This document shows positions 1-11,372 of a DNA stretch of 11,372 bases, one piece after another. The notes beneath the pieces were generated by a model. The model was not told where the DNA came from. It searched no databases and saw only the letters and a program-made list of their open reading frames with translations. Position numbers and translations under genes: made by a program. The DNA comes from a virus. Its lineage: Duplodnaviria > Heunggongvirae > Uroviricota > Caudoviricetes. The DNA is taken from the IMG/VR virus record IMGVR_UViG_2778261165_000014, positions 1 to 11,372 of that record; one strand, written 5' to 3'. Numbering within the stretch: position 1 is the stretch's first letter; the number at the start of each line of letters is the position of its first letter.

Positions 1-17
1 GCCAGATATTGAATGGC

Positions 18-425
18 CTACGCCTCCGGCAGTTCAGGCCAGATGACATCCGGCGCGGTGCTGGTATCAGTAGCTGTCACCGCGTCAATGTAATCCAGCA
101 CAGCGTTAAGGCGGGTTGTTTCTGCCTGCGTCAGTTTACGTCCGGCCTGCAATTTCAGCTGAATCAGACTGATGGAAGCCATAGCAGCATCAATCAGATG
201 CTGTTTCATTAATTCAGATGCTGCAACCAATTCATCATGAGTTGGTTGTGCGGGTTCTGCCAGTACAGGCAGTCCGTTACTGTCTGCCGTAATATTCTTT
301 CCTGCCTCCTGACCAGCAATAAGTGCGTCATATACTTCATCACTGATTTCTACTGCGTCACCGGGTATATAAGAGGATATATCGGAGTTATAAAGAGCAA
401 TCGGAGCAGATGTAAAATATTTCAT
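18..425 (-). CDS. Tail fiber assembly chaperone (Tfa-like)
   Basis: Minus-strand ORF immediately downstream of the tail-fiber gene. The C-terminus ends ...DVIWPELPEA, matching my recollection of the conserved Tfa C-terminal motif. Preferred start is the second ATG (425..423), which has GGAGA 5 nt upstream; the ORF-track start at 437 abuts the upstream TAA and has no SD. Confidence 0.7.
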   Translation of the reverse strand: MKYFTSAPIALYNSDISSYIPGDAVEISDEVYDALIAGQEAGKNITADSNGLPVLAEPAQPTHDELVAASELMKQHLIDAAMASISLIQLKLQAGRKLTQAETTRLNAVLDYIDAVTATDTSTAPDVIWPELPEA

Positions 426-437
426 TGTTTTCTCCAT

Positions 438-1181
438 TTACCAGCCAATTGCCAGCCAACACCATGTTGCAGGTGATGATTCACTGCCTGTACTCATATT
501 TTGCCCTATCCATGATGCTGATGTTCTTCCTGGAATATAGAACCGAACATTCGATAAATCCGTAGACGCTGTCGCAAAGTCATGCGCAAAAATCGCAATA
601 CACGCATTTGGAAATGCGGATGGGAAGGTAATAACACCATTTCTTGCTGAGCTGGATATCTGAGATGCCTGAATAATAAACTCCATGTTAACGCCGTTAA
701 TAACTACCGGGATTTTTGCTGTCAACGTATTACCGTTAATGACAAGTGCAGCGGCAGACATTTTTGCCGCTTCCCCCAAACCAAGGTATGAAAGAATATC
801 TTTCCACCCGGTACCATTGCTGTTTGGATCAGATAGATTTCCTTCTGTTGTATTAATGAATATTCTTTCCCCATCGTCCGATATGAGCATCGCCCCAGAC
901 GGATATCCAGAAATCTCCGAAGCAAATTCAGAATCAAAAGTGTTCAGCGCCCCGGTGCTCGACCATCTCCCCAGAGCAGAAAGTTCGTATAAAATTTGGT
1001 TCATATCCTGGCCTTTTGGCGGCAAACCGCCAGCAGATTTCAGGATCATTGTTATTGGAGGGAACCCCTGTTCATACGATGCTGAGTTATCACCTGCAGG
1101 GGTGGTTGGCAATATTGCCACTCTCTGTCCATTAACTCCAAATGGCTTAGGTTGTTTTTTAGGTGAGTCAGAACGATTCAT
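438..1181 (-). CDS. Tail fiber protein (short, 247 aa)
   Basis: ORF sits between a baseplate-associated gene and the Tfa-like chaperone. AGGA lies 7 nt upstream of the ATG at 1181. The protein is Gly/Ser/Thr/Asn-rich, as fibers typically are. Function is inferred from synteny, not from a recognised domain. Confidence 0.6.
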   Translation of the reverse strand: MNRSDSPKKQPKPFGVNGQRVAILPTTPAGDNSASYEQGFPPITMILKSAGGLPPKGQDMNQILYELSALGRWSSTGALNTFDSEFASEISGYPSGAMLISDDGERIFINTTEGNLSDPNSNGTGWKDILSYLGLGEAAKMSAAALVINGNTLTAKIPVVINGVNMEFIIQASQISSSARNGVITFPSAFPNACIAIFAHDFATASTDLSNVRFYIPGRTSASWIGQNMSTGSESSPATWCWLAIGW

Positions 1182-1183
1182 GC

Positions 1184-1822
1184 TTAATTCCTATAAAATG
1201 TGCCGTCATTAAATGGATATGCATCTGTAGCAAAACCAAAGTATGGGCTTACAATTTGTTTGATATTTACCTGAACTCCACTTGGTACAGGAGTCACATC
1301 GTAATTTGTTAAAATCGATTCTTCGTAGGGAGCAAGTGAGAACTCAAAATTTATACCAATGGTCATATCTCTGTAATTGACACAATATGCTCTGCCTCGT
1401 TGATAAAAAAGTATTTTAAGAAATTTATTTATATCAGGAATGGTTGCCACACTGATGTTAGTAAAAGCCTTGCAGAGTATTAATGTTCTGTAAGCATCAT
1501 CCCCAAGCCTGACATTCGTTGTTTCCTGAATGCCGACGTAAAACGGAGAATTATTAAATGGTGCCGGGTAATCAGTACTCCCATCATCTGCTTCGCTAAA
1601 TCCAAATGAATCGCTATCTATTGGCGCAACAATATATCTGCTTATGCCAACAATTTTCCCCCACATATCAAGCCCGAATGTTTCGCAGGTAGTTAAATCC
1701 CATACCTTTTTAATGAATTCCTCTGTGAAATCATCAAGACTCACTGCCTGGTTAAATGTGTCTATGATGGACAATAATTTCTTACTTGCTGAGTATTGGG
1801 TAAGTATTGTGTCTTCCCACAT
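1184..1822 (-). CDS. Baseplate or tail-fiber-associated structural protein (occupies the position of Mu gp48-like proteins)
   Basis: 212-aa ORF tightly packed between the baseplate J-like gene (stop 1833-1835) and the tail fiber gene. Family assignment is positional only. Confidence 0.55.
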   Translation of the reverse strand: MWEDTILTQYSASKKLLSIIDTFNQAVSLDDFTEEFIKKVWDLTTCETFGLDMWGKIVGISRYIVAPIDSDSFGFSEADDGSTDYPAPFNNSPFYVGIQETTNVRLGDDAYRTLILCKAFTNISVATIPDINKFLKILFYQRGRAYCVNYRDMTIGINFEFSLAPYEESILTNYDVTPVPSGVQVNIKQIVSPYFGFATDAYPFNDGTFYRN

Positions 1823-1832
1823 GCCTCACCCC

Positions 1833-3062
1833 TCACGATAGAATTACGGTAATATCTGATTCCTGAATTGTCGGAACCTGGTCGATACCCATTGTTATTG
1901 CTGGCCCATAGGCTGATCCATCAATGGAGACTTCAAGCGATAAAATCCCAACGGTGTCAGGTGATATTGAAATAACCGGAGCATAATACTTACCGGCGTT
2001 AATGGTAGAGCCTATCCTTGCCTTCCCGATCCCCTCATAACCACCATTGAAAACTGATACGATCATGCTTTTCACTTGTGATGTGATATCACTAGGTGGA
2101 TTAAGAGAGCTATCCAGCTCAACGCTAAAATAAACCCTCGTCGGAGTTGCTTTTTGCCACTGCATTACATAGGAAGGGTATGGAGGTAGATAGTTAACAT
2201 TGTCGTAAACCGTGTACGAGGTATCTCCGTTCAGATTTGCTCCAGGGTTGTACGTCTGGAAAATTGACTCCGCTACATCCTCATCAGTTCCACCATACAC
2301 ACAGATGTAAATAGAGTGCGCCACCACAGGGAAGTTAGTAGCTCCCTGATTTACTGTGGCTGCAGTTCTGTTTGACCATACATAGGCATCCAGCACACCA
2401 TTCGTAGCCAGCAAGGCAGATAGTGTCGATGCGTCCTGATTACGGCTATTTCTCGCGACCGACTGCTTGCGACGTGTTTCAAATGCAATACGTGATTCAA
2501 CATCAACGCCAACAACGCCTGGGCTCGCGTTTGTGATCGCATCCCATCCAGATACTGCACGGTAAATCTGATTTAATGCACCTGCTGCACAGGGTATTGG
2601 TCCGGTTGTGTTATTTACAAACTGAACATCAATGCTTCCTGATGCTGGTATTGTTGCGATGTCGATAGACCGGTAAATATATCCATTGGTATCAATGGCT
2701 GTGCTTCCCGCGGGGATTGTCGTTCCGACCTGACCAATGCATGTTGCTGTAACAACTGTCCCCTGAGCAGCGATCCGTTCCATAAAGTAAATCCGGCCAA
2801 TCCCGTCCTGGAATCTGCCAGTTGAGAAGTCAGGGTTAATTTGATTAAACAAACAAAGAAGTTTGTCGTATTCCTGAGCAATAATTTCAGTGTCAGACTG
2901 TGCGATCTGCCCTTGCGGTGAACTCAGTGATTGACTAGCACCACCGCCAAGAGCCGTTGACATGTCTGTAAGTCTTCCCGCCAGCACATCCGCTATGTCG
3001 GGAACTGAAAGACCGTTTTCAGTGATGGTTACATCAGGAACAGCCGTATTTAATATCGTCAT
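1833..3062 (-). CDS. Baseplate J-like protein (gp47/gpJ family)
   Basis: 409-aa ORF. Its start overlaps the upstream gene's stop as ATGA (3062/3059). Size and position after a GP46-like gene and before the fiber genes fit the baseplate J family; the assignment is by recollection of that family, not by search. Confidence 0.7.
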   Translation of the reverse strand: MTILNTAVPDVTITENGLSVPDIADVLAGRLTDMSTALGGGASQSLSSPQGQIAQSDTEIIAQEYDKLLCLFNQINPDFSTGRFQDGIGRIYFMERIAAQGTVVTATCIGQVGTTIPAGSTAIDTNGYIYRSIDIATIPASGSIDVQFVNNTTGPIPCAAGALNQIYRAVSGWDAITNASPGVVGVDVESRIAFETRRKQSVARNSRNQDASTLSALLATNGVLDAYVWSNRTAATVNQGATNFPVVAHSIYICVYGGTDEDVAESIFQTYNPGANLNGDTSYTVYDNVNYLPPYPSYVMQWQKATPTRVYFSVELDSSLNPPSDITSQVKSMIVSVFNGGYEGIGKARIGSTINAGKYYAPVISISPDTVGILSLEVSIDGSAYGPAITMGIDQVPTIQESDITVILS

Positions 3063-3418
3063 AAGGTGGCCTGTGCAATATTACCATTGATATCTGTAAC
3101 GCGGATTGTGCCGCGAGTTGTGCGTGTATTCTTGTCAAAGAAAACTGATGCCAGAGCATCCTCAACAACGGGTAATTTGAGTGCTTCAGCCTGCATTTTC
3201 TGAGCAATAAAACCAGGAGATGGTCGCCTGCCAAGAACTTCTGCCTTCCATGGGATCCCAAGTGTATTGTCGTAATAACACTCTCCTGAAAACACCAGGC
3301 ATGCACTGGCGACATCCTGAGCAACAGAATATGATTCTTCTGCGATCGCCAGATTGCCATTTCCGTCAAGCGTCAAGTCCCACGTAGATGTGTCCAGTTG
3401 CATAGTTCTGTATGTCAT
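3059..3418 (-). CDS. Phage GP46-family baseplate protein (small)
   Basis: 119-aa ORF with N-terminal ...TWDLTLDGNGNLAIAEE..., resembling the D-L-x-L-x-x-D-G-D-L opening I recall for Mu gp46-like proteins. ATGA overlap with the upstream gene at 3415-3418. Confidence 0.6.
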   Translation of the reverse strand: MTYRTMQLDTSTWDLTLDGNGNLAIAEESYSVAQDVASACLVFSGECYYDNTLGIPWKAEVLGRRPSPGFIAQKMQAEALKLPVVEDALASVFFDKNTRTTRGTIRVTDINGNIAQATL

Positions 3419-4107
3419 GTCGGTTTATCCGTTGCATTGGAATTTATTGTTGCCCCACCACTTTGTACACCTGAAACAGAATGTTTGTGATTGTTATAAT
3501 TGTCCCTTAAATTTTTAACAGTAGATGACTGTGAACTTGCGTTATCCTGAATATCACCGCTAACTTTAAGTAAAGGAGTATTCATGTTGACTCCATCAGG
3601 AGCATCAATATTTAACGATGAACATTTAATATTTAGTGGGTTAGGCGTGGTTATGTTTATTGCACCATCAGCAAATTCAATGAATTGAGTAGGTGCAATA
3701 TTTAATACCCCACCAAGATAAATTGCATCAGATTTACTGTGTCGCCTTTTGCTTCCAGGTACTGATTCTTTACGATTTTTTCTTACCAGTGATGTGTCTT
3801 TGTCACATATCGCAATCAGACCAATATCACCCGCCACAGGGTCCATAATTACAGCGCTGTTTCCTCTTTGCAACCGCCATACGGGAAGGTCATATAAAAC
3901 CGAGTTAGAAATCATTTTTCCTGTACGGTCTGTTCTGGTTAGTAAAGGAAGAGCGTCAACAACTAAATCCGGTGCTTTCCCCCTGACTTCCTGAACTCTC
4001 GCTAACTCAATGAAGAAATATCCAGACATCATCATCTCAAAAATATATTCCTGAGATTGAGCCTCACTTACCTGAGCAGGCGTTGGAGTAAATAGTTGCT
4101 TATCCAT
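3415..4107 (-). CDS. Baseplate assembly/spike protein (gpV / Mu gp45-like)
   Basis: The ORF track gives 3415..4200, but that overlaps the upstream gene by 101 nt. The internal ATG at 4107 (MDKQLFTPT...) reduces the overlap to 8 nt and is my preferred start; its SD is weak. Function is inferred from position and size. Confidence 0.55.
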   Translation of the reverse strand: MDKQLFTPTPAQVSEAQSQEYIFEMMMSGYFFIELARVQEVRGKAPDLVVDALPLLTRTDRTGKMISNSVLYDLPVWRLQRGNSAVIMDPVAGDIGLIAICDKDTSLVRKNRKESVPGSKRRHSKSDAIYLGGVLNIAPTQFIEFADGAINITTPNPLNIKCSSLNIDAPDGVNMNTPLLKVSGDIQDNASSQSSTVKNLRDNYNNHKHSVSGVQSGGATINSNATDKPT

Positions 4108-5089
4108 TATTCTGTTGCGCCTCTGCTCTTTGTTCCGCTGTTCTGGCGGCAATACATATTGAGTGCCATGAACCATTTGGCATCCATGATGATAACTCAT
4201 GCCGAACGGAGGTTAACTTATACCTTCCGCTTGCATGTGGTAGTCCTGTTTTGATATCCACATATCTTCCAATGCAAAGGAGAGATGAATATTGCGTCTG
4301 AAACATCAGTCCCCCATTTGAAAATACAGGATATCCAACAAGTCCGTATTCTCTGGATATAAACGGAATTACATCGTCTCTGTTTTTTTCTGAAGGCCAG
4401 AACTCTACTTTTGTCGGTGGCGTAGCTGACATCGCCAGTCCATAATCTGAACAGACCCTATAAAGTTGCTCAAAAACACTTCCTTCAAAATGCGGACTTC
4501 CTGATGTTGTCATCCCTTTTACATTATTAAACACAGCTTCATAACCTGCACTTGCACAAATGGATGAGATGACATCTTCAACACTTTGCGCCCCCTGCGC
4601 TGTAAACGGGCTTGCTGGCATGTTCTGTAAATCAACATTAGAAGAGGCTGTTATCATCAGACTGCTTTCAGGAGCAGAATTCATGTTTGCTATTGATGAA
4701 AGCATCGTGCCGGAGAAAACAAGAGAATCATCAGCAAATACCTCAACATTTAACTTCTGACCTTCCCCAACAATACCATCAGCCTTCCCTGATATATCAG
4801 CAAGTCTTTCAATTCCTAACCCGTAAAGAGATATATCAGCCTGAGCACCTCCACGACCGGTAACAAAGTTCAGGGATACTGTTGACTTAACATTTCTGAT
4901 GGAGATTTTATTGTTTCCATTTTTATCAAATGCTGATGATTCATTCGTGAAGTCAAACCGAAGACTGTGATTTTTATACAAGCTCGTTTTCCTCGATGTA
5001 ATACAGCAAGTAACGGCTACCCAATCCTTCCCATCGCGGGTCCGATTCCCCATCATTATCAATGAAAATAAGGTCTCCCTTAAATCCAA
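4100..5089 (-). CDS. Baseplate hub-like protein (gpD / Mu gp44-like position); start ambiguous
   Basis: 329-aa ORF from the ATG at 5089 overlaps the upstream 100-aa ORF by about 116 nt. An alternative TTG start at 4981..4979 has GAGGA 8 nt upstream and would overlap by only 8 nt. Function is positional inference. Confidence 0.55.
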   Translation of the reverse strand: MDLRETLFSLIMMGNRTRDGKDWVAVTCCITSRKTSLYKNHSLRFDFTNESSAFDKNGNNKISIRNVKSTVSLNFVTGRGGAQADISLYGLGIERLADISGKADGIVGEGQKLNVEVFADDSLVFSGTMLSSIANMNSAPESSLMITASSNVDLQNMPASPFTAQGAQSVEDVISSICASAGYEAVFNNVKGMTTSGSPHFEGSVFEQLYRVCSDYGLAMSATPPTKVEFWPSEKNRDDVIPFISREYGLVGYPVFSNGGLMFQTQYSSLLCIGRYVDIKTGLPHASGRYKLTSVRHELSSWMPNGSWHSICIAARTAEQRAEAQQNNG

Positions 5090-5276
5090 GGTATGAATAT
5101 CTTACCATCTTATTCCCATGCAGACATGGAACGCCCTGCATAATTGGGACTTCATTAACAGTTAAATCCATGTACATAAAACTCTGTCGCTGAACAATTT
5201 TTATATTACATTGCTGACCAGCCAGACTTACCGAAATGGACTGAGATTTGCTGGGAAGAACAGATACTGTAATCAT
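4974..5276 (-). CDS. Hypothetical small tail/baseplate-associated protein (100 aa)
   Basis: ORF whose ATG (5276..5274) overlaps the upstream gene's stop as ATGA, suggesting translational coupling within the late operon. No recognisable motif. Confidence 0.5.
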   Translation of the reverse strand: MITVSVLPSKSQSISVSLAGQQCNIKIVQRQSFMYMDLTVNEVPIMQGVPCLHGNKMVRYSYLGFKGDLIFIDNDGESDPRWEGLGSRYLLYYIEENELV

Positions 5277-6088
5277 GTACTCGCCTTAACTATATTTTTT
5301 GCAATATCTTCCGCTTTTTTTGTTGCGCTGTTTGTGACTTCGAGTATTGGTTTGGATACCGTATCAAGAGCACTCTGAAATTCAGTCTTGATTGTGTCGG
5401 AGATTTTTCCAGTGATTTCGCCAACAGATGACTTCAGTGATGACCATGATTTACTTAGCTCATCGACAGTAGATTCCCTGGCTCCGCCATTGGTTATTTG
5501 CGGATCAACTCCTACATCTCCCTGCGACTTATTGTTATCCGTTGGCTTCTGTTCTGACTGAGATCCGGAGAGGATAACCTCCATTTGCTGAATGACCTCC
5601 TGAAAATCAAGATAAACCGTCAGAAGAGTCACCCCCTTTTGAGAGTTAACTTCGTAATAGTGGTCAACAAGGTCGAAACTCTCCAGAGTTTCCTTCGGCG
5701 TTTCAATATCGTATGTTTTTGCAGAGGACAGCATCGTTTTGATTGTGTTCAGCGTGCTGTTCTGGCTTGTGAATGTGAGATCGAAAATATTCGGGATGTT
5801 GCCGGAAAAACCAGTAAGACCATTTACGATGATTGCACATCTTACTCTGGCGGGTTCTTTAACTTTGTTGATGGACTGGTATTTCCCTTTCTCCACCGGA
5901 GCGTTTGTTATTTGCGCCCTTCCGCTTGGCTGTACGGATGCCATACCACTGAACTCAAGAGCAACCTCGCCAGTTTCCCTGTCACGAATCACATACTGGG
6001 GATGCAGAACGCTGTCGATGATCGAAAGCGGAGAGCCACCACCGATAGCATTGAATATGTCTGCTGTGTTTAAATCGATTATGCCCAT
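5273..6088 (-). CDS. Phage tail/baseplate structural protein (271 aa), first gene after the ant terminator
   Basis: ATG at 6088 with GGAGA 4 nt upstream. Lies immediately downstream of the hairpins that follow ant and upstream of the baseplate genes. Function is positional. Confidence 0.65.
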   Translation of the reverse strand: MGIIDLNTADIFNAIGGGSPLSIIDSVLHPQYVIRDRETGEVALEFSGMASVQPSGRAQITNAPVEKGKYQSINKVKEPARVRCAIIVNGLTGFSGNIPNIFDLTFTSQNSTLNTIKTMLSSAKTYDIETPKETLESFDLVDHYYEVNSQKGVTLLTVYLDFQEVIQQMEVILSGSQSEQKPTDNNKSQGDVGVDPQITNGGARESTVDELSKSWSSLKSSVGEITGKISDTIKTEFQSALDTVSKPILEVTNSATKKAEDIAKNIVKAST

Positions 6089-6098
6089 CTACTCTCCA

Positions 6099-6166
6099 TT
6101 AAACAAAAACCCAGCCGAAGCTGGGTTGTTGCGTTTGTTCTTGACCTGCACTTTTCGTGCAGGTGG
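6099..6166 (-). terminator. Tandem hairpins downstream of ant; the second is an intrinsic-terminator candidate
   Basis: Hairpin 1: acctgcac (6144-6151) pairs with gtgcaggt (6157-6164), 5-nt loop. Hairpin 2: aacccagc (6108-6115) pairs with gctgggtt (6120-6127), loop cgaa. On the minus-strand RNA hairpin 2 is followed by UUUUUGUUUAA (reverse complement of 6099-6109). Confidence 0.5.
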
Positions 6167-7027
6167 TTAAAATGGTTGTAAGCCTTTCAGCCCTGCGGCA
6201 TCCTCCAGACTTTTCTTAACGCTTGCAGTTACGGAATAGCAATCTGCAATTCTTCCGCAAAATCTGGTCGCAACCGGAGAGCCAAGCAATCGCAAAGCGG
6301 GTTCCATTTCGTCTCTCCATATTCTGTACATGGCATCAAGATGAATGCACGCCGAGTTCAGGTTATGAACATTCATCCTCCAATCAAAACAACTCATCTC
6401 ATTATGTTTCGACTTGCCGATGAATTCGCCTTCAAGTGGAACTCGAGCTGCAAGTGACAGTGCTTCGGTAAACTGCTCCTCACGGATTTCTTTGTATGAA
6501 CATCCAAAATGAGATTTCAGTGACGACCACATGGTGATCATCGCCTTCGCCTGTTTTTCTTTTGGCAGAGACTGACCGCGACTCATGACAAGTTGTTTAA
6601 TGGCTTCCTGCTGTTCAGTGGTGATTTTACCCGGCAATGCCTTTTTAGCTTTGCGCGGGTTAACCACATGGCCTTTAGTCCAGTACTCGTAGAGCACATC
6701 GTCACACTCTTCCTGATAGTGGATTACATTGTCGCGGATTTCAGGGCGGACTTTGTTAGGGCTGATGGTTTGCAACCAGCCATTCAGTTTACGTAAAGCA
6801 AGGCAAATCATGGTCTGCACGCCGCCAACTGAAGGTATTGCGATTTCCACAATACCTTTAGCAAATCTTTGTTTTAACTTTGTAAACTGTGAAGCCCAAT
6901 CCATACCCATTCCCTCAACGATAGGTTTCATTGGGGTGTACGGTTCGCCGTTGTGATTGACAACATAAAGCTCTGCGCCGTGAAATGGCACGTTGATAGT
7001 AGATACCGCTGTTGCTATACTTTTCAT
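6167..7027 (-). CDS. ant: Antirepressor (Ant-like)
   Basis: 286-aa ORF directly downstream of an Arc-like gene and divergent from an Mnt-like gene, which is the P22 immI arrangement. Size is close to P22 Ant (about 300 aa as I recall). GAGGA lies 9 nt upstream of the ATG at 7027. Confidence 0.75.
   Translation of the reverse strand: MKSIATAVSTINVPFHGAELYVVNHNGEPYTPMKPIVEGMGMDWASQFTKLKQRFAKGIVEIAIPSVGGVQTMICLALRKLNGWLQTISPNKVRPEIRDNVIHYQEECDDVLYEYWTKGHVVNPRKAKKALPGKITTEQQEAIKQLVMSRGQSLPKEKQAKAMITMWSSLKSHFGCSYKEIREEQFTEALSLAARVPLEGEFIGKSKHNEMSCFDWRMNVHNLNSACIHLDAMYRIWRDEMEPALRLLGSPVATRFCGRIADCYSVTASVKKSLEDAAGLKGLQPF
6993..7021 (+). promoter_or_regulatory. Candidate sigma70 promoter for the sar-like antisense RNA (TTGATA-17-TATACT)
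   Basis: -35 TTGATA at 6993-6998, a 17-nt spacer, and -10 TATACT at 7016-7021 on the plus strand, inside the 5' end of ant and pointing toward arc. Confidence 0.5.
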
Positions 7028-7097
7028 GTCAGTTTTTCCTCAATACTTACTGGCGATTTAAGCCCTAGATACTCGCAATATCTGGGGCTTTACTCAT
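7028..7097 (+). ncRNA. sar: Candidate sar-like small antisense RNA (about 70 nt) complementary to the ant ribosome-binding region
   Basis: The predicted start just after the -10 box lies opposite the ant start codon and SD. The plus-strand hairpin agccctagata (7061-7071) / tatctggggct (7079-7089) has an 11-bp stem with one G-U pair and a 7-nt loop, followed by T-rich ttactcattct (7090-7100). Length and position match what I recall of P22 sar (68-69 nt). Confidence 0.5.
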
Positions 7098-7240
7098 TCT
7101 GGACAAACAATCCCGTCCTTAGCTACCGACTCCTTAAGCCTCCTCAACACCTCATTGCTGAATGACCGATCATCCTTTTTCGCTGACTGCTCCAAAGCTT
7201 TTTCGAGCCATTCTGGCATCCTTAACGTTTTTACTTTCAT
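7094..7240 (-). CDS. arc: Arc-like ribbon-helix-helix repressor (48 aa)
   Basis: Not in the ORF track because it is under 60 aa. Manual translation gives MKVKTLRMPEWLEKALEQSAKKDDRSFSNEVLRRLKESVAKDGIVCPE, with AGGAG 5 nt upstream of the ATG at 7240..7238. The LRMPEW and RSFSNEV segments resemble the P22 Arc strand and helix regions as I recall them. Confidence 0.7.
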   Translation of the reverse strand: MKVKTLRMPEWLEKALEQSAKKDDRSFSNEVLRRLKESVAKDGIVCPE

Positions 7241-7253
7241 TTTCGCTCCTTTG

Positions 7254-7270
7254 GTATGCGGTACGCATAC
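7254..7270. promoter_or_regulatory. 17-bp palindromic operator candidate (GTATGCG-gta-CGCATAC) over the predicted start of the arc-ant transcript
   Basis: Perfect 7-bp inverted arms read directly from the sequence. It lies immediately downstream of the predicted -10 of the arc-ant promoter, the geometry expected for an Mnt-type operator. Confidence 0.5.
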
Positions 7271-7299
7271 ATAGTATGTAGGTACGCATTGATAGTCAA
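7271..7299 (-). promoter_or_regulatory. Candidate promoter for arc-ant (Pant-like; TTGACT-17-TACTAT)
   Basis: On the minus strand, -35 TTGACT is the reverse complement of 7294-7299 and -10 TACTAT is the reverse complement of 7271-7276, with a 17-nt spacer. A GGTACGCAT direct repeat (7261-7269 and 7281-7289) and the palindrome ATTGAtagTCAAT (7288-7300) overlap it. Confidence 0.5.
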
Positions 7300-7317
7300 T
7301 AGATACCTACATATCCT
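7289..7317 (+). promoter_or_regulatory. Candidate divergent promoter for the mnt-like gene (TTGATA-17-TATCCT)
   Basis: -35 TTGATA at 7289-7294 overlaps, back to back, the -35 of the arc-ant promoter inside the palindrome. The -10 candidate TATCCT at 7312-7317 is weaker. Confidence 0.3.
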
Positions 7318-7345
7318 GTGGTAAAAAATTATTCAGGATATGCTG

Positions 7346-7588
7346 ATGTCTGAACGCAGGTACAAGAACCCACAAGTTAATCTTCGACTTCCTGTGGAGA
7401 TAAAGGATCGCCTAACCGCGTTAGCTGAGGAGAATGGCAGATCTTTAAATGCAGAAATGGTTGCAGCTCTAAGTGCATGGGCAGGAGAAAATAAACATGT
7501 TCACTCGCTTAGCCTTTCTTCCTTAACCGAAAGATTAATAGCTCTTGAGAGAGAGGTTGCAGCCATTAAGGAAGCAAACATCAAGTAA
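7346..7588 (+). CDS. mnt: Mnt-like ribbon-helix-helix repressor
   Basis: The ORF track starts at 7340; the second ATG at 7346 has AGGA 7 nt upstream. The N-terminus ...PQVNLRLPVEIKDRLTALAEENGRSLNAEMV... shows the Arc/Mnt family pattern, and the C-terminus LTERLIALEREVAAIKEANIK looks like a coiled coil, which Mnt uses to tetramerise. Divergent from arc-ant. Confidence 0.7.
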   Translation: MSERRYKNPQVNLRLPVEIKDRLTALAEENGRSLNAEMVAALSAWAGENKHVHSLSLSSLTERLIALEREVAAIKEANIK

Positions 7589-7611
7589 GAAGACGATATT
7601 ACGAGGTTGCT

Positions 7612-8079
7612 ATGGCATGTCTTAGCAAGGAAGAAAATGAAATCATCAATGTAGAATTTAAAAAAACATCAGCAGATGAGTTGTTGATAATCAAGAAATT
7701 AATTATCGATGTTAAGAACCATAAAGGGCTATACCAAGATGTCGTAAAGCATGGTCAAAACCTGTACAACTCAAAGAATAACATCATTCAAGAAACCGGA
7801 CTTAGCGAAAAGATATCTGGTCGTCTTGCTATGATCCTTTGGTCTATCACTAATCCTGAGGTTGAGGCGGCACGCCGATTAAAGATTAAGATCACTGAGG
7901 CAACGTGGGTGTTTGAGGATTTCCTATGTAAACATCCCAGTCACCGCAATCTCAATGGCAAAAAGTACTCTATTCGTAAAGGAATCAGGATCGGTTTTTT
8001 CAAGCACATCCACCCAGGACAACTTGTAGGGTGTGGATGTTTATCTAGACCCATAATTCCAGGGTTAAAAAACTCTTGA
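7612..8079 (+). CDS. Hypothetical protein (155 aa), unrecognised, in an AT-rich cargo island
   Basis: ATG at 7612, 23 nt after the mnt-like stop, with an SD-like acgagg upstream. Hand count of a 100-nt sample (7612-7711) gives about 29% GC, against about 49% for a sample in the baseplate J gene (2401-2500). The C-terminal region has a Cys/His cluster (C106, H108, H111, H132, H134, C141, C143). Confidence 0.55.
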   Translation: MACLSKEENEIINVEFKKTSADELLIIKKLIIDVKNHKGLYQDVVKHGQNLYNSKNNIIQETGLSEKISGRLAMILWSITNPEVEAARRLKIKITEATWVFEDFLCKHPSHRNLNGKKYSIRKGIRIGFFKHIHPGQLVGCGCLSRPIIPGLKNS

Positions 8080-8088
8080 TAGTAGTAA

Positions 8089-8328
8089 TTAATTTCCATC
8101 AAGGGCAGCAAGCAGCGAAGTGCGCAACTCTTCTTGAGTCATTTTCAACTCTCCGCTCTTTGCTTGCCGGCGAAGATCATCGACCACCATTTTGGTGAAT
8201 TCTGTAGGGGTAATCTCACTCTCGATAGAGACCTCTCTCCCGAGAAGCAATGATATCCCACCCCAAATTAGGCTAAAGGCATTACCAATATTTTTTAACG
8301 ATGGAGTGTAAACGATGGAAAGTTTCAT
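8089..8328 (-). CDS. Possible small protein (up to 79 aa, or about 53 aa from TTG at 8250), antisense to the start of the 116-aa plus-strand ORF; uncertain
   Basis: This is the C-terminal part of the 161-aa minus-strand ORF in the track. It has a hydrophobic stretch (IGNAFSLIWGGISLLLG) followed by a charged tail (...EFTKMVVDDLRRQAKSGELKMTQEELRTSLLAALDGN). The plus strand has no ORF of 60 aa or more across 8080-8314. SDs are weak. Confidence 0.25.
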   Translation of the reverse strand: MKLSIVYTPSLKNIGNAFSLIWGGISLLLGREVSIESEITPTEFTKMVVDDLRRQAKSGELKMTQEELRTSLLAALDGN

Positions 8329-8665
8329 TTTTACCGTCCGACAAGAAGATGTTGAATCATTAAACGAAGCAATGCAAACATGGGGGCTAGAACATAAGCC
8401 ACATGTAACACTAGCATTCGACAGCTCGTCTCCACCAGAGTGGGTGCAAGTAATTGTTAACGGAATAACAAGCCCTGCGGCAATGAATTGTTTATCTGCT
8501 GCAATTGGATATTTCGTCGCCAGAAACAAGGGGAAAAAGCTAGAGATACAAACTAACGACGGGAAAAGATTCATCGCTGAAGGGTTTAATCATCGTGAAA
8601 TAAGCGCCTTACTGAGCGAATGTCAAGATCATATCGTTGTCAATAATGATGACAAGCCCACCTGA
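8315..8665 (+). CDS. Hypothetical protein (116 aa), unrecognised
   Basis: ATG at 8315 with GGAG 8 nt upstream (8303-8306). Same orientation as the mnt-like gene and the neighbouring cargo ORFs. The sequence looks like a soluble protein; no motif recognised. Confidence 0.5.
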   Translation: MESFIFTVRQEDVESLNEAMQTWGLEHKPHVTLAFDSSSPPEWVQVIVNGITSPAAMNCLSAAIGYFVARNKGKKLEIQTNDGKRFIAEGFNHREISALLSECQDHIVVNNDDKPT

Positions 8666-8729
8666 GTAGGCATTGCGTGTTTTTTCTTCATTTAATGGGC
8701 AATTGAAATAACCAATACGGATCTCTAAA

Positions 8730-9131
8730 ATGAACATCTTAAAATCTACCATCTCAATCCTCTTTCTGCTAAGCCCTTCCGTGTGCTTCTCGTCTGGCGG
8801 CCTTACTTCACATCAAGTTTTAGTGGATTGCAACAGAGCTTCATCGTCCTTGGTTAGCTCCTATGAAAAGAACGTTCCATTGCAGGAGTCCAAAAGGATG
8901 GACCTCATACAGACAATATCCCGCGTATGCCAAGGTGCATACCAAAACGCTTACGATGGCATGCAGTATGAGGACATTGAAAGAGAGGTTTTATCAAGCG
9001 CCAAAAAACAAAAGAAAAATCTTCAAGGAGAAAGCAAAAAAAATACCGAGAACAGAACCGGACTAGTTCTTTCCGCCATTCAGGTAGGGTATTACATATA
9101 CCATAATGGCGGTCTTGATAATAAAAAATAA
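8730..9131 (+). CDS. Hypothetical secreted or membrane-associated protein (133 aa) with N-terminal signal peptide
   Basis: The N-terminus MNILKSTISILFLLSPSVCFSSGG has a basic n-region and hydrophobic core typical of a Sec signal. The C-terminal part is Lys-rich and contains a second hydrophobic stretch (GLVLSAIQVGYYIY). Its 3' end converges on the tape-measure gene with a 20-nt gap. Confidence 0.6.
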   Translation: MNILKSTISILFLLSPSVCFSSGGLTSHQVLVDCNRASSSLVSSYEKNVPLQESKRMDLIQTISRVCQGAYQNAYDGMQYEDIEREVLSSAKKQKKNLQGESKKNTENRTGLVLSAIQVGYYIYHNGGLDNKK

Positions 9132-9151
9132 TCGTCATTATGACATGATCG

Positions 9152-10969
9152 TTAAGGTGTTACACCACTAGAAAATGCCGCGTTTGTTGACACCCGGCTA
9201 ACTTGCTGATTGACACTTCTGGTAAGAGCATCAACTGTTGTCGGGTTACTGTTAACAACAACCGTGCCAATAGTTGTACTGCTGCTACGACTGTTGTCAA
9301 TTTTTGATGTTGTCTGGCTTGGTGTTGAAGCGATGCGTTGCTGCTGCTGATAGTAAGCCAGCGTCTCGTTTTCTTTTGCATTAAGAGCTGCGCGAATCTT
9401 TGGTACATATTCTCGCGTTTCTTTCGGCAGGGTGTTCCAGTATTTGGATGATGGTGAATCAAACCCGGTACTGGATATGTATTTTAACTTTTTGTCTACA
9501 TTGCCCATCCCCCAGTTGTAAGCCATCAGCGCATGGTTAACATTGCCTTTATAGTGCTTTAGCAAATCCCTCATGAACCTTTCAGCAGCAGCGCGAGATT
9601 TCACTTCATCAAGACGCTCATCAATCCCATCCCCGACCTTTAACCCGTACGCTATGGCAGTATCCTTCATGAGCTGATACGGACCAACAGCACCTTTCGG
9701 GCTGTAAAGTTTTTTACCACCACTCGATTCCACCTCACGAATGGCATCAAGAAGAGAATCCATGCTTACAGGCTTTACTCCGTCAGGGAGAGGGATATCT
9801 GGCTGAATGTTATTGCCATAAATCTCATCTCCCCTACGCCCAAAATCGGTGTCAAACCCCATGCTGCGCATGGTATCTCCAAGTTCACGCTTAGAGTAAT
9901 CAAACGATCCTTTAGCTGCACCCTCAATGTTTTCCCTGTCATTGTAGAGGTACAAACCATATGCTATTAACCCAGCCAACCATGGAGGAAGGGCACCGCC
10001 TGTAAGTTTGCTTCCTACATATGCTGCTGCCAATAGTTTCAGAGCCTCTTCCGCACCACCAACTGCCTTTGTGAATTGCTTCGTCATATTCCCGGCGTCA
10101 TTGAAAAAGCCAATGATGTCGCCATGATGTTTCTCAATCCAGGAACCAAAAGCCTTCATCCCGTCAATAACGTCTGGAGCGAATGCCATGGCTAAATTTT
10201 GCTTTAATCGGGAAAACTCTGAATCAAGTTGCCCAAGAGTGGCAGCAACCTTCTCCTGCTCTTTTACCTGCTGTGCGGTAATACGGGATTTCTTTGTTTC
10301 TGAATCGACAAGCTGCTTAAGTTCCCCTGATTTTATTTTAGCGGCATCTGTCGGATCGAACCCTGATGCAGCCATCACCTGCATCAGGTTTTCTTGAGAA
10401 TGAGTCTTGCCATAGCGAGAAAACTCAGCAAGAGCCTTGTTTGGGTCGCCGAGCTTATTGATATCTAATCCGGTACGAGCTCCAAGAATCAGCAAATTTT
10501 GGGCAGCGCCAGTAAGCCCTCCCATAACAGTCGGATCGGCAATATTTGCCAAAGCCATTCTGGCATTCCCAGAAGATGAAATGAACGAGTCACCGTTAAG
10601 ACCAGCCTGGCGAAATCCCCGCTGAACACCAAACATCTTATTAACATCAGAGCCGAAAAACTTGGCCTGTTGGCTGGCCCTCACAATTTCGTTGGCAGTA
10701 GATGTAAAAAGTTGCTTGATTCCATACAACCCTGCGCCAATTCCCAAAAATCCAGCGGCTGCTGTTGTCACGTTGCGGAAAGCTGAAACAGCGGTTTTAC
10801 CGAACCTCTCCATTTCCTTCCGCCGTTTTTCAAGTTCCTTTAGCCTTTCCTTCTCAGCCCTGGAAAGATCTTTGTTTAATTTACTAACTTCATCTTTTAC
10901 TTTCCGTTTTCCATTCAGGAATTCATCGGCCTTAATTGTGACCTTGTAGGCCAACTCATTGATAATCAT
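9152..10969 (-). CDS. Tape-measure-like protein with C-terminal SLT lytic transglycosylase domain
   Basis: 605-aa ORF. The N-terminus has a charged coiled-coil-like stretch (KRKVKDEVSKLNKDLSRAEKERLKELEKRRKEMERF) and Gly-rich hydrophobic segments. Around aa 400-515 (nt 9425-9772) it carries family-1 SLT motifs: E-S (E414, codon 9728-9730), GAVGPYQLM, and AYNWG. GGAG lies 5 nt upstream of the ATG at 10969. Confidence 0.7.
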   Translation of the reverse strand: MIINELAYKVTIKADEFLNGKRKVKDEVSKLNKDLSRAEKERLKELEKRRKEMERFGKTAVSAFRNVTTAAAGFLGIGAGLYGIKQLFTSTANEIVRASQQAKFFGSDVNKMFGVQRGFRQAGLNGDSFISSSGNARMALANIADPTVMGGLTGAAQNLLILGARTGLDINKLGDPNKALAEFSRYGKTHSQENLMQVMAASGFDPTDAAKIKSGELKQLVDSETKKSRITAQQVKEQEKVAATLGQLDSEFSRLKQNLAMAFAPDVIDGMKAFGSWIEKHHGDIIGFFNDAGNMTKQFTKAVGGAEEALKLLAAAYVGSKLTGGALPPWLAGLIAYGLYLYNDRENIEGAAKGSFDYSKRELGDTMRSMGFDTDFGRRGDEIYGNNIQPDIPLPDGVKPVSMDSLLDAIREVESSGGKKLYSPKGAVGPYQLMKDTAIAYGLKVGDGIDERLDEVKSRAAAERFMRDLLKHYKGNVNHALMAYNWGMGNVDKKLKYISSTGFDSPSSKYWNTLPKETREYVPKIRAALNAKENETLAYYQQQQRIASTPSQTTSKIDNSRSSSTTIGTVVVNSNPTTVDALTRSVNQQVSRVSTNAAFSSGVTP

Positions 10970-11205
10970 CGCTGCTCCTGATGTTTATTCCAGACCCGCT
11001 TGTTAAATGATTCCACCGAGATAATTTCCAGCAGGTTATACATATCACGAACAGATAACCGTTCCTGCAAATCGGTATAAGTGGCTTTTCCTGAACAGAT
11101 AATGGCGTTCATTGATGGTGTGACGTTTACGGGGCTAACGAGTTTTGCCGGAAGAGTCTCCTCCTCCATGAACGGGTACTTCACTCTCCGGCGATCGTTA
11201 AAAAA
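10966..11205 (-). CDS. -1 frame extension (T-like) of the tail assembly chaperone, predicted to be expressed by programmed frameshifting as a G-T-type fusion
   Basis: This reading frame opens right after a stop at 11206-11208 and runs to 10966, overlapping the tape-measure ATG as ATGA. It has no convincing start or SD of its own (the track's start at 11184 is GTG; the first ATG at 11170 lacks an SD). The slippery heptamer UUUUUUA lies at 11205..11199 on the minus-strand mRNA. Confidence 0.55.
   Translation of the reverse strand, partial: FFNDRRRVKYPFMEEETLPAKLVSPVNVTPSMNAIICSGKATYTDLQERLSVRDMYNLLEIISVESFNKRVWNKHQEQR
11147..11205 (-). other. Programmed -1 ribosomal frameshift signal: slippery heptamer U UUU UUA plus downstream hairpin
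   Basis: On the mRNA the zero-frame codons are GAU UUU UUA (11207..11199). After a 6-nt spacer (ACGAUC), GCCGGAGAG (11192..11184) can pair with CUCUUCCGGC (11156..11147), giving a 9-bp GC-rich stem with one bulged U and a 27-nt loop. Confidence 0.5.
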
Positions 11206-11372
11206 TCAAAATTGACTTTAAATACCTTATCCATTACCTGACGAATGGTTGATACCTCTTCAAAGTCGACAGGCTTCACGGTTCGCACCTGTCTGCTGCC
11301 TTCGTGTGTAATCACAATTTGCACAGTTGACATCAGGCGATCACGAAGTTTTCTGGCGACTTCCGGCGATGC
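11181..11372 (-). CDS. Tail assembly chaperone (G-like), 3' portion; 5' end lies outside the window
   Basis: Open frame from the window edge to TGA at 11183..11181, translated manually as ...ASPEVARKLRDRLMSTVQIVITHEGSRQVRTVKPVDFEEVSTIRQVMDKVFKVNFDFLTIAGE. It sits immediately upstream of the tape-measure gene and contains the slippery site near its 3' end. Confidence 0.55.
   Translation of the reverse strand, partial: ASPEVARKLRDRLMSTVQIVITHEGSRQVRTVKPVDFEEVSTIRQVMDKVFKVNFDFLTIAGE

Follow-up and report, generated by a model that had tools for sequence, protein, structure and literature searches.

The locus examined here raises a simple question: what does a small gene, oriented against the late operon and lying 20 bp from the end of a tape-measure gene, do for the phage that carries it? 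The gene is an open reading frame (ORF) at 8730-9131 (+) in an 11,372-nucleotide stretch of tailed-phage DNA (Caudoviricetes; positions 1-11,372 of IMG/VR virus record IMGVR_UViG_2778261165_000014), the whole of which is referred to below as the window. An earlier note, made from the letters of the window, described the product of this ORF (hereafter the target) as a signal-peptide protein encoded in a cargo island and proposed that it acts at the envelope to exclude other phages. The analysis presented here indicates with high probability that the target is an exported accessory protein. For its function we favour superinfection exclusion acting from the periplasm, a hypothesis that draws on synteny and analogy and that we hold tentatively, somewhat short of an even chance.

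The target coding sequence runs from an ATG to a TAA stop codon (9129-9131), has the N-terminus MNILKSTISILFLLSPSVCFSSGG and specifies a 133-residue precursor, in agreement with the earlier description. At the sequence level it is a genuine gene, beyond a chance ORF, because homologues are found in several genera and because the pooled ratio of nonsynonymous to synonymous polymorphism (pN/pS) is 0.27 in a codon-level comparison of seven loci, a value indicative of purifying selection. The corresponding pairwise ratios of substitution rates (dN/dS) lie between 0.08 and 0.39. Constraint within the ORF is strongest over residues 23-56 (pN/pS of 0.11); the signal peptide has a value of 0.39 and the part from residue 57 onwards 0.33. 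The position of this constrained segment matters because the RefSeq annotation, made with the Prokaryotic Genome Annotation Pipeline (PGAP), starts the product at Met57 and so drops it. The annotated protein (WP_047085296.1; window 8898-9131) has 77 residues, is the commonest record of the family, being found on 511 contigs, and also omits the signal peptide, helix 1 and Cys34.

Taken at face value, this annotation would mean that the true product is a 77-residue cytoplasmic protein and that the upstream frame is open by chance. The PGAP call itself and the number of contigs on which the short form is recorded speak for such a reading, as does the weak Shine-Dalgarno sequence ahead of the long start in the window (GGA at 8719-8721 (+), 8 nt before the ATG). 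It is nevertheless exceedingly unlikely. The short form discards the most constrained part of the ORF, together with the first helix of the predicted bundle and Cys34; the Yersinia and metagenomic relatives retain the full frame and the signal peptide at 37-56% identity; and the long start is preceded by a good Shine-Dalgarno sequence in homologues (GGAG or AAGGAG, compared with GGA alone in the window). We regard the 77-residue form as a systematic annotation error, which has hidden the exported nature of the protein.

Residues 1-21 (8730-8792 (+)) form a predicted type-I Sec signal peptide, with cleavage predicted after Cys19-Phe20-Ser21. The assignment is rule-based, using the architecture of the n-, h- and c-regions and Kyte-Doolittle hydropathy, and it upholds the Sec-type signal proposed earlier. 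The n-region carries Lys5 and the h-region covers residues 6-18 (about 13 residues; best 15-residue window 1.81, best 19-residue mean for the signal peptide 1.62), while Pro16 lies ahead of the predicted cleavage site and Cys19-Phe20-Ser21 occupy positions -3 to -1. In the distant homologues P0012, P0013 and P0014 the signal sequence has turned over but the n/h/c architecture persists; their signal peptides read MKNKLKLITLLFIASITSSSLA↓A, MKIKVMATLIVSLSSPMACFA↓D and MNFKVIASAVITLCVSMPSMA↓S, with AXA-like cleavage motifs (SLA↓A in Yersinia, CFA↓D and SMA↓S in the metagenomic relatives). Residues 1-22 are disordered in the AlphaFold2 model, with a predicted local distance difference test score (pLDDT) below 50. 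From these sequence features the protein is very probably exported, and the cleavable signal peptide would send a small soluble protein to the periplasm. The target is not a lipoprotein, because Cys19 is unconserved (the Yersinia homologue P0012 has Ser at this position) and is not preceded by a lipobox ([LVI][ASTVI][GAS]C is absent; Pro-Ser-Val precedes Cys19). The parallel drawn earlier with Sie-, Cor- and Llp-type proteins does not extend to relationship, and none to Ltp is supported either: a tblastn search of 50,697 phage genomes, P22 included, gave no match to the target at E <= 0.01 and hence no homology to SieA, and the lipobox is missing.

The mature protein (8793-9128 (+); about 112 residues, 12.5 kDa, pI 8.9) is predicted to be a four-helix bundle. 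The AlphaFold2 model, computed from a 10-sequence alignment, has a mean pLDDT of 82 and a predicted template-modelling score (pTM) of 0.73, with core blocks at pLDDT 91-97, and places helices at residues 27-46, 53-75, 80-95 and 101-126. Two cysteines, Cys34 in helix 1 (codon 8829-8831 (+)) and Cys67 in helix 2 (codon 8928-8930 (+)), are present without exception in the 12 aligned family members. The two are about equally far from the loop between helices 1 and 2, consistent with a periplasmic disulfide, and given the predicted export and the antiparallel register of the two helices they probably form a bond that would staple the bundle. Three conserved polar or aromatic stretches, LTSHQ at the mature N-terminus, DGMQYEDIER at the turn between helices 2 and 3 and YIYHNGG at the C-terminus, would by topology lie at the same end of the modelled bundle and make up a candidate interaction surface. 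The Lys-rich region noted previously is present at residues 91-104 (AKKQKKNLQGESKK, seven Lys in 14 residues). It belongs to a variable segment (residues 91-105; 9000-9044 (+)) that in the model runs from the last part of helix 3 through a loop into the beginning of helix 4; this is the most variable region of the alignment and is shorter in P0014 and in locus L023.

A second hydrophobic segment near the C-terminus had also been proposed, and here the evidence points the other way as far as a membrane element is concerned. The best 19-residue Kyte-Doolittle window in this region reaches 0.58, compared with 1.62 for the signal peptide, and the segment corresponds to helix 4 (residues 101-126), modelled at pLDDT 85-96. 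A membrane-bound target, either bitopic or anchored through an uncleaved N-terminus and the C-terminal segment, or else a lipoprotein of the Cor, Llp or Ltp type, could draw on the hydrophobic N-terminus and on GLVLSAIQVGYYIY near the C-terminus. We consider it very improbable, given that the h-region is just about 13 residues long and contains a proline, that the C-terminal segment is part of a confidently modelled bundle, and that Cys19 follows Ser-Val in place of a lipobox and is missing in P0012.

Relatives of the target are few. A search of 5.8 billion proteins returned 11 homologues at 67-100% identity, two of which are fragments, and in an exhaustive hidden Markov model (HMM) search of 1.84 billion representative proteins the family amounted to four clusters, three of them more distant. 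The more distant members of these clusters are 37-52% identical. By source name the hosts are Escherichia coli, Salmonella enterica, Citrobacter, Pectobacterium carotovorum, Yersinia enterocolitica and Y. aldovae, and identity across the prophages of these five genera is 37-92%. All family records are named 'hypothetical protein', and the earlier description of the protein as unrecognised holds: there is no credible match in Pfam, PHROG, NCBIfam or PADLOC, the sole PADLOC line (SspC, E = 0.012, 11 bits) being treated as noise. A profile search of PDB sequences gave just two weak matches to the Bcl-2-like poxvirus protein M11L (57 helical residues, E = 0.0017), judged to be a chance helical match, and one further chance match; Foldseek found nothing in the PDB or BFVD at E <= 0.001. 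The exhaustive HMM search reached no distant annotated relative among its 1.84 billion representatives, and a scan of species-representative genomes gave no confirmed target locus. The LTSHQ motif prompted a comparison with CpxP and Spy sequences (LTXXQ family, PF07813); hhalign probabilities were 0.3% and 0.1%, respectively, there was no Pfam LTXXQ match, and the likeness is limited to these five residues. The target thus defines a narrow orphan family of predicted exported four-helix proteins.

The genomic position of the family is invariant. In every sufficiently long locus the target is convergent to the SLT tape-measure gene and lies 4-38 bp from its stop, as seen in six gene-called contexts (L002, L004, L006, L007, L008 and L011-L014) and in further tblastn matches (L009, L015, L017-L020, L022 and L023). 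This arrangement spans five genera, down to a tape-measure identity of about 31% (Yersinia), and in most full-length loci the target follows a mnt-like gene. Between the target and the Dit-like tail gene, gene turnover is free. There are no genes in this interval in L007, in which the target is the sole insert; L008 has a YafO toxin pair, L009 a pRha gene and L011 only mnt, plus arc/ant; L002, L006, L012-L014 and the window have a mnt-like gene and/or one or two other ORFs. Locus L004 (Pectobacterium carotovorum, GCA_023507825.1) is a rearranged element in which an intact 594-residue SLT tape-measure gene and the target stand without the rest of the tail module, adjoining a primase (Toprim/DUF927) and a phrog_12509 gene.

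Among 16 complete E. coli genomes with the tape-measure gene at 96-99% identity, the target is present in nine and absent from seven. In the target-less genomes the slot holds either another signal-peptide protein or a P63C-domain gene, the latter in TW10590. The former is found in strains E423 (L025) and EC16 (L026), where the slot (4025-4498) is filled by the 157-residue WP_052922733.1, which begins with the signal peptide VEQVIKVTAIAIILLTMSPITATA↓KK and ends 2 bp from the stop of a tape-measure gene 96-98% identical to that of the window. This protein was considered as a diverged homologue of the target and was rejected, the two being unrelated on comparison. The slot may therefore be a general site for exported cargo proteins. 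The nearest cultured relatives, the Edwardsiella phages GF-2 and Edno5 (Gofduovirus; tape-measure identity 30-33%), share the order tape-measure, cargo, mnt, arc, ant, Dit; the target family is absent from both, and their cargo includes small membrane proteins. Being present or absent among near-identical phages and inserted between conserved genes, the target counts as an accessory gene of the moron type, carried by a temperate myovirus prophage that is akin to the Edwardsiella Gofduovirus phages. Other cargo of the island comprises a YafO-toxin gene with a partner ORF (L008, 1199-2223), a Panacea-domain protein with a partner (L025, 2730-3597; E423 and EC16) and a P63C-domain protein (L024, 3318-4286), and the island acts as a hot spot at which accessory or defence-type genes gather.

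A comparison with phage P22 gives this position a possible meaning. In P22 the gene order is 16, sieA (convergent, 22 bp), orf59a, mnt, arc, ant, 9, and the window mirrors it. All structural genes of the window are on the minus strand, and the island (6167-9131) lies between a tape-measure/lytic tail gene (9152-10969 (-); phrog_2013, 2.3e-191), whose C-terminal region contains a lytic-transglycosylase domain (Pfam SLT, 3.8e-20, residues 402-498), and a Dit-like tail gene (5273-6088). Within the island are an ant antirepressor gene (6167-7027 (-); P22_AR_N, 3.9e-44; phrog_524, 1.9e-74), an arc-like repressor gene (7094-7240 (-); Pfam Arc, 1.6e-5) and a mnt-like gene for an Arc-family repressor (7340-7588 (+); Pfam Arc, 1.7e-10), the last of which opens a plus-strand unit that the target closes. 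The cargo island of the earlier note is thus confirmed as variable prophage cargo beside an immI-type regulatory module. Its statement that the target is next to immunity genes stands for this arc/ant plus mnt module and falls for the primary repressor. On the mnt side of the arc/ant/mnt immI module, sieA and the target each take the distal end, and both are convergent, at a distance of about 20 bp, to the gene for the last envelope-ejected protein, namely gene 16 for sieA and the SLT tape-measure gene for the target.

SieA is a protein of the inner membrane, expressed from the prophage, that blocks DNA injection (PMC10883804). Mutations that escape it map to the ejection proteins gp16 and gp20 (PMC10883804); gene 16 is the immediate neighbour of sieA. 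The sieA slot is filled in related phages by several unrelated sequence types (PMC10883804), just as alternative exported proteins fill the slot of the target. The two proteins themselves differ. SieA has 162-164 residues and three predicted membrane spans and lacks a signal peptide (PMC10883804), whereas the target is a predicted soluble exported helical bundle in which only the N-terminal signal peptide is hydrophobic enough to enter a membrane. They have no sequence similarity (tblastn; no PHROG match), and P22 is a podovirus with ejection proteins, whereas the phage of the target is a myovirus with a tape-measure protein. Exclusion is a plausible reading of the target, and the synteny with P22 strengthens it.

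The region upstream of the target has features in keeping with this comparison. An alignment of E. coli, Salmonella, Yersinia and metagenomic loci, together with RNA folding, brought out a GC-rich hairpin at 8656-8671 (-) (GCCCAC ctga GTAGGC), which overlaps the stop codon of the preceding 116-residue ORF and in the window is stable on the minus strand only (-12.2 kcal/mol, z of -3.1; plus strand -7.5 kcal/mol, z of -0.3). Salmonella and Yersinia loci have this hairpin ahead of the target too, flanked by an A-run and a T-run; the GC hairpin of L007 is a different one and leads into seven T. A strict terminator scan of 7000-9300 found none, and no plus-strand terminator between mnt and the target; the hairpin surfaced in the alignment and folding only. 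It resembles a late-direction or bidirectional terminator, in a position comparable to that of the P22 mnt terminator before the sieA promoter. A promoter-like conserved block follows at 8672-8709 (+), reading ATTGCGTGTT ... TAATGGGTAAAAT in relatives of several genera and lying about 28 nt before the ATG, so that the two elements together look like a terminator and then a promoter, as between orf59a and sieA. Transcription of the target would run counter to the late operon, starting on the mnt side and perhaps also at a promoter of its own, and for a gene read from that side of an immI-like module expression in the lysogen would be expected. Divergent, overlapping promoter-like sites are also present in the gap between arc and mnt (7241-7339; plus strand 7289-7317, minus strand 7299-7271), resembling the Pant/Pmnt arrangement of P22.

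How might such a protein act? It would interfere from the periplasm with genome delivery by incoming related phages, most likely by binding a component of the tail tip or the tape-measure protein, perhaps its SLT domain, or else a host factor that this component needs. Periplasmic exclusion is favoured because the synteny with P22 sieA is joined by the precedents of HK97 gp15 and T4 Spackle. In addition, the family is tied to one tail module across hosts of widely differing lifestyles, which would favour a phage-directed role over one in the host niche.

Several temperate phages encode proteins that bear comparison. P1 Sim, from a temperate enterobacterial myovirus, is a signal-peptide-processed, periplasm-directed exclusion protein that blocks infection after adsorption, and is about twice the size of the target. 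The Ltp protein of phage TP-J34 has a helical structure and acts against the tape-measure protein. Ltp is an exclusion lipoprotein exposed on the cell surface (PMC3952083), and the gene for the HK97 moron gp15 adjoins the tape-measure gene, its product blocking genome entry (PMC3594210). These last two are prophage-expressed envelope proteins that block genome injection where entry depends on a tape-measure protein, as is proposed for the target. HK97 gp15 belongs to the YebO family and is a small protein of the inner membrane, and Ltp comes from Gram-positive phages and is a lipoprotein; the target has neither a membrane span nor a lipobox and no homology to either protein.

There is also a likeness in build to Spackle (gp61.3) of phage T4, a periplasmic disulfide-bonded helical bundle of 75 residues in its mature form that inhibits the tail lysozyme gp5 and excludes phages (PMC7677548). 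Both proteins are small and all-helical, with a signal peptide and one cysteine pair, as far as the target can be judged from prediction, and the neighbour of the target encodes the peptidoglycan-degrading (SLT) domain of the tail. The target could thus be a Spackle-like periplasmic inhibitor of the tape-measure SLT domain, by which lysogens would disarm the peptidoglycan-cutting step of sibling phages; this more specific proposal, which is made by analogy, is distinctly unlikely on present evidence. No sequence or fold relationship to Spackle was detected (tblastn, PDB profile search, Foldseek). T4 differs in being a virulent phage in which Spackle is an early gene unlinked to gene 5, and the enzyme here would be a lytic transglycosylase, not a lysozyme of the T4 type.

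Several observations weigh against exclusion and must be set beside the synteny. The target has no homology link to any exclusion protein in Pfam, PHROG, NCBIfam or PADLOC. Its divergence is untied to that of the SLT domain: between L007 and L023 the SLT domains are 84% identical and the targets 47%, and between the window and L002 the targets are 80% identical and the SLT domains 53%. The correlation between target and SLT domain (r = 0.53) is no higher than that with other tape-measure segments. That the two genes adjoin could simply be due to a recombination junction located at the tape-measure gene's 3' end. As for expression, the promoter-like block at 8672-8709 has a poor -35 element, and its -10-like hexamer is degraded in the window (CAATTG) and likewise altered in L017 (TAATTG). 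Expression of the target in this lineage may rely on read-through that starts at the mnt promoter. Downstream of the target no terminator was found. Finally, the exported-protein morons of prophages also include virulence and fitness factors.

This last point leads to the main alternative, a lysogenic-conversion or host-fitness role unrelated to phage exclusion, for example as a periplasmic immunity or inhibitor protein against toxins that attack peptidoglycan, such as effectors of the type VI secretion system or colicins, as a modulator of envelope stress or as a virulence factor. Many exported-protein morons are fitness factors, and a small exported helical protein with a conserved cysteine pair would suit such a role, as would the company of YafO (L008) and a Panacea-domain protein (E423, EC16) at the same hot spot and the LTxxQ-like LTSHQ at the mature N-terminus, which recalls CpxP and Spy. 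Set against this are the negligible hhalign probabilities and the missing Pfam LTXXQ match described above, and the searches by sequence and by fold in the PDB, in which no immunity protein was matched. The family also occurs only beside one tape-measure gene, in hosts that range from plant pathogens to enteric bacteria, which is a poor fit to a niche-specific factor. A fitness role is possible on balance, if unlikely.

A role in the lytic cycle of the phage itself, such as the timing of lysis or protection against lysis from without, was weighed as well. The target is predicted to be exported and is linked to a peptidoglycan-degrading tail protein, and Spackle affects lysis inhibition in addition to its other activities (PMC7677548). 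The gene, however, points the opposite way to the late operon and is found on the side of mnt, the side that P22 expresses from the prophage, and the lysis cassette is elsewhere in the prophage. Seven of the 16 E. coli prophages whose tail gene is near-identical do without it, as do the cultured relatives, which implies that it is dispensable for lytic growth. We regard such a role as quite improbable, and superinfection exclusion from the periplasm remains the hypothesis that we prefer.

The remainder of the plus-strand unit contains two further ORFs. A 155-residue ORF (7612-8079 (+)) matches phrog_324 over residues 108-153 (5.1e-9), and its C-terminal motif HPGQLVGCGCLSRP resembles the end of minor head proteins annotated as 'head morphogenesis' in that family; it is located in the mnt-side operon, outside the head module. 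Homologues occur in L012-L014, L017-L022 and L024, directly upstream of the target in the Yersinia loci L012-L014; the tblastn matches include L019-L022 and TW10590, a genome that lacks the target. The 116-residue ORF (8315-8665 (+); phrog_12509) is variable cargo that accompanies the target in L001 and L018 only, with a member of the same PHROG elsewhere in L004. A 161-residue minus-strand ORF (8089-8574) overlaps it, and PGAP annotates both an 80-residue minus-strand gene (8089-8328) and the plus-strand gene; a family match was obtained for the plus-strand product alone (phrog_12509) and none for the minus-strand ORF. With regard to the history of the locus, the island is 100% identical to NZ_CP148507.1, and the segment from 8700 through the tape-measure gene is 98.5% identical to the same record. 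Across loci, identities are discordant for the SLT domain, the remainder of the tape-measure protein and the target, which points to recombination within and around the tape-measure gene.

Taken together, these results provide a well-defined orphan family and a testable hypothesis for its function, as distinct from a demonstrated mechanism. If the target proves to inhibit the SLT domain, it would be a protein inhibitor of a tail lytic transglycosylase encoded by a temperate phage, beside the gene for its own target, and would represent an inhibitor fold family without known relatives. If exclusion more generally is correct, the family would constitute a new, non-homologous type of periplasmic superinfection-exclusion protein in temperate myoviruses of the Enterobacterales. 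It would extend the layout known from P22 to a different type of virion, and would open a way to study the passage of tape-measure/SLT proteins across the periplasm.

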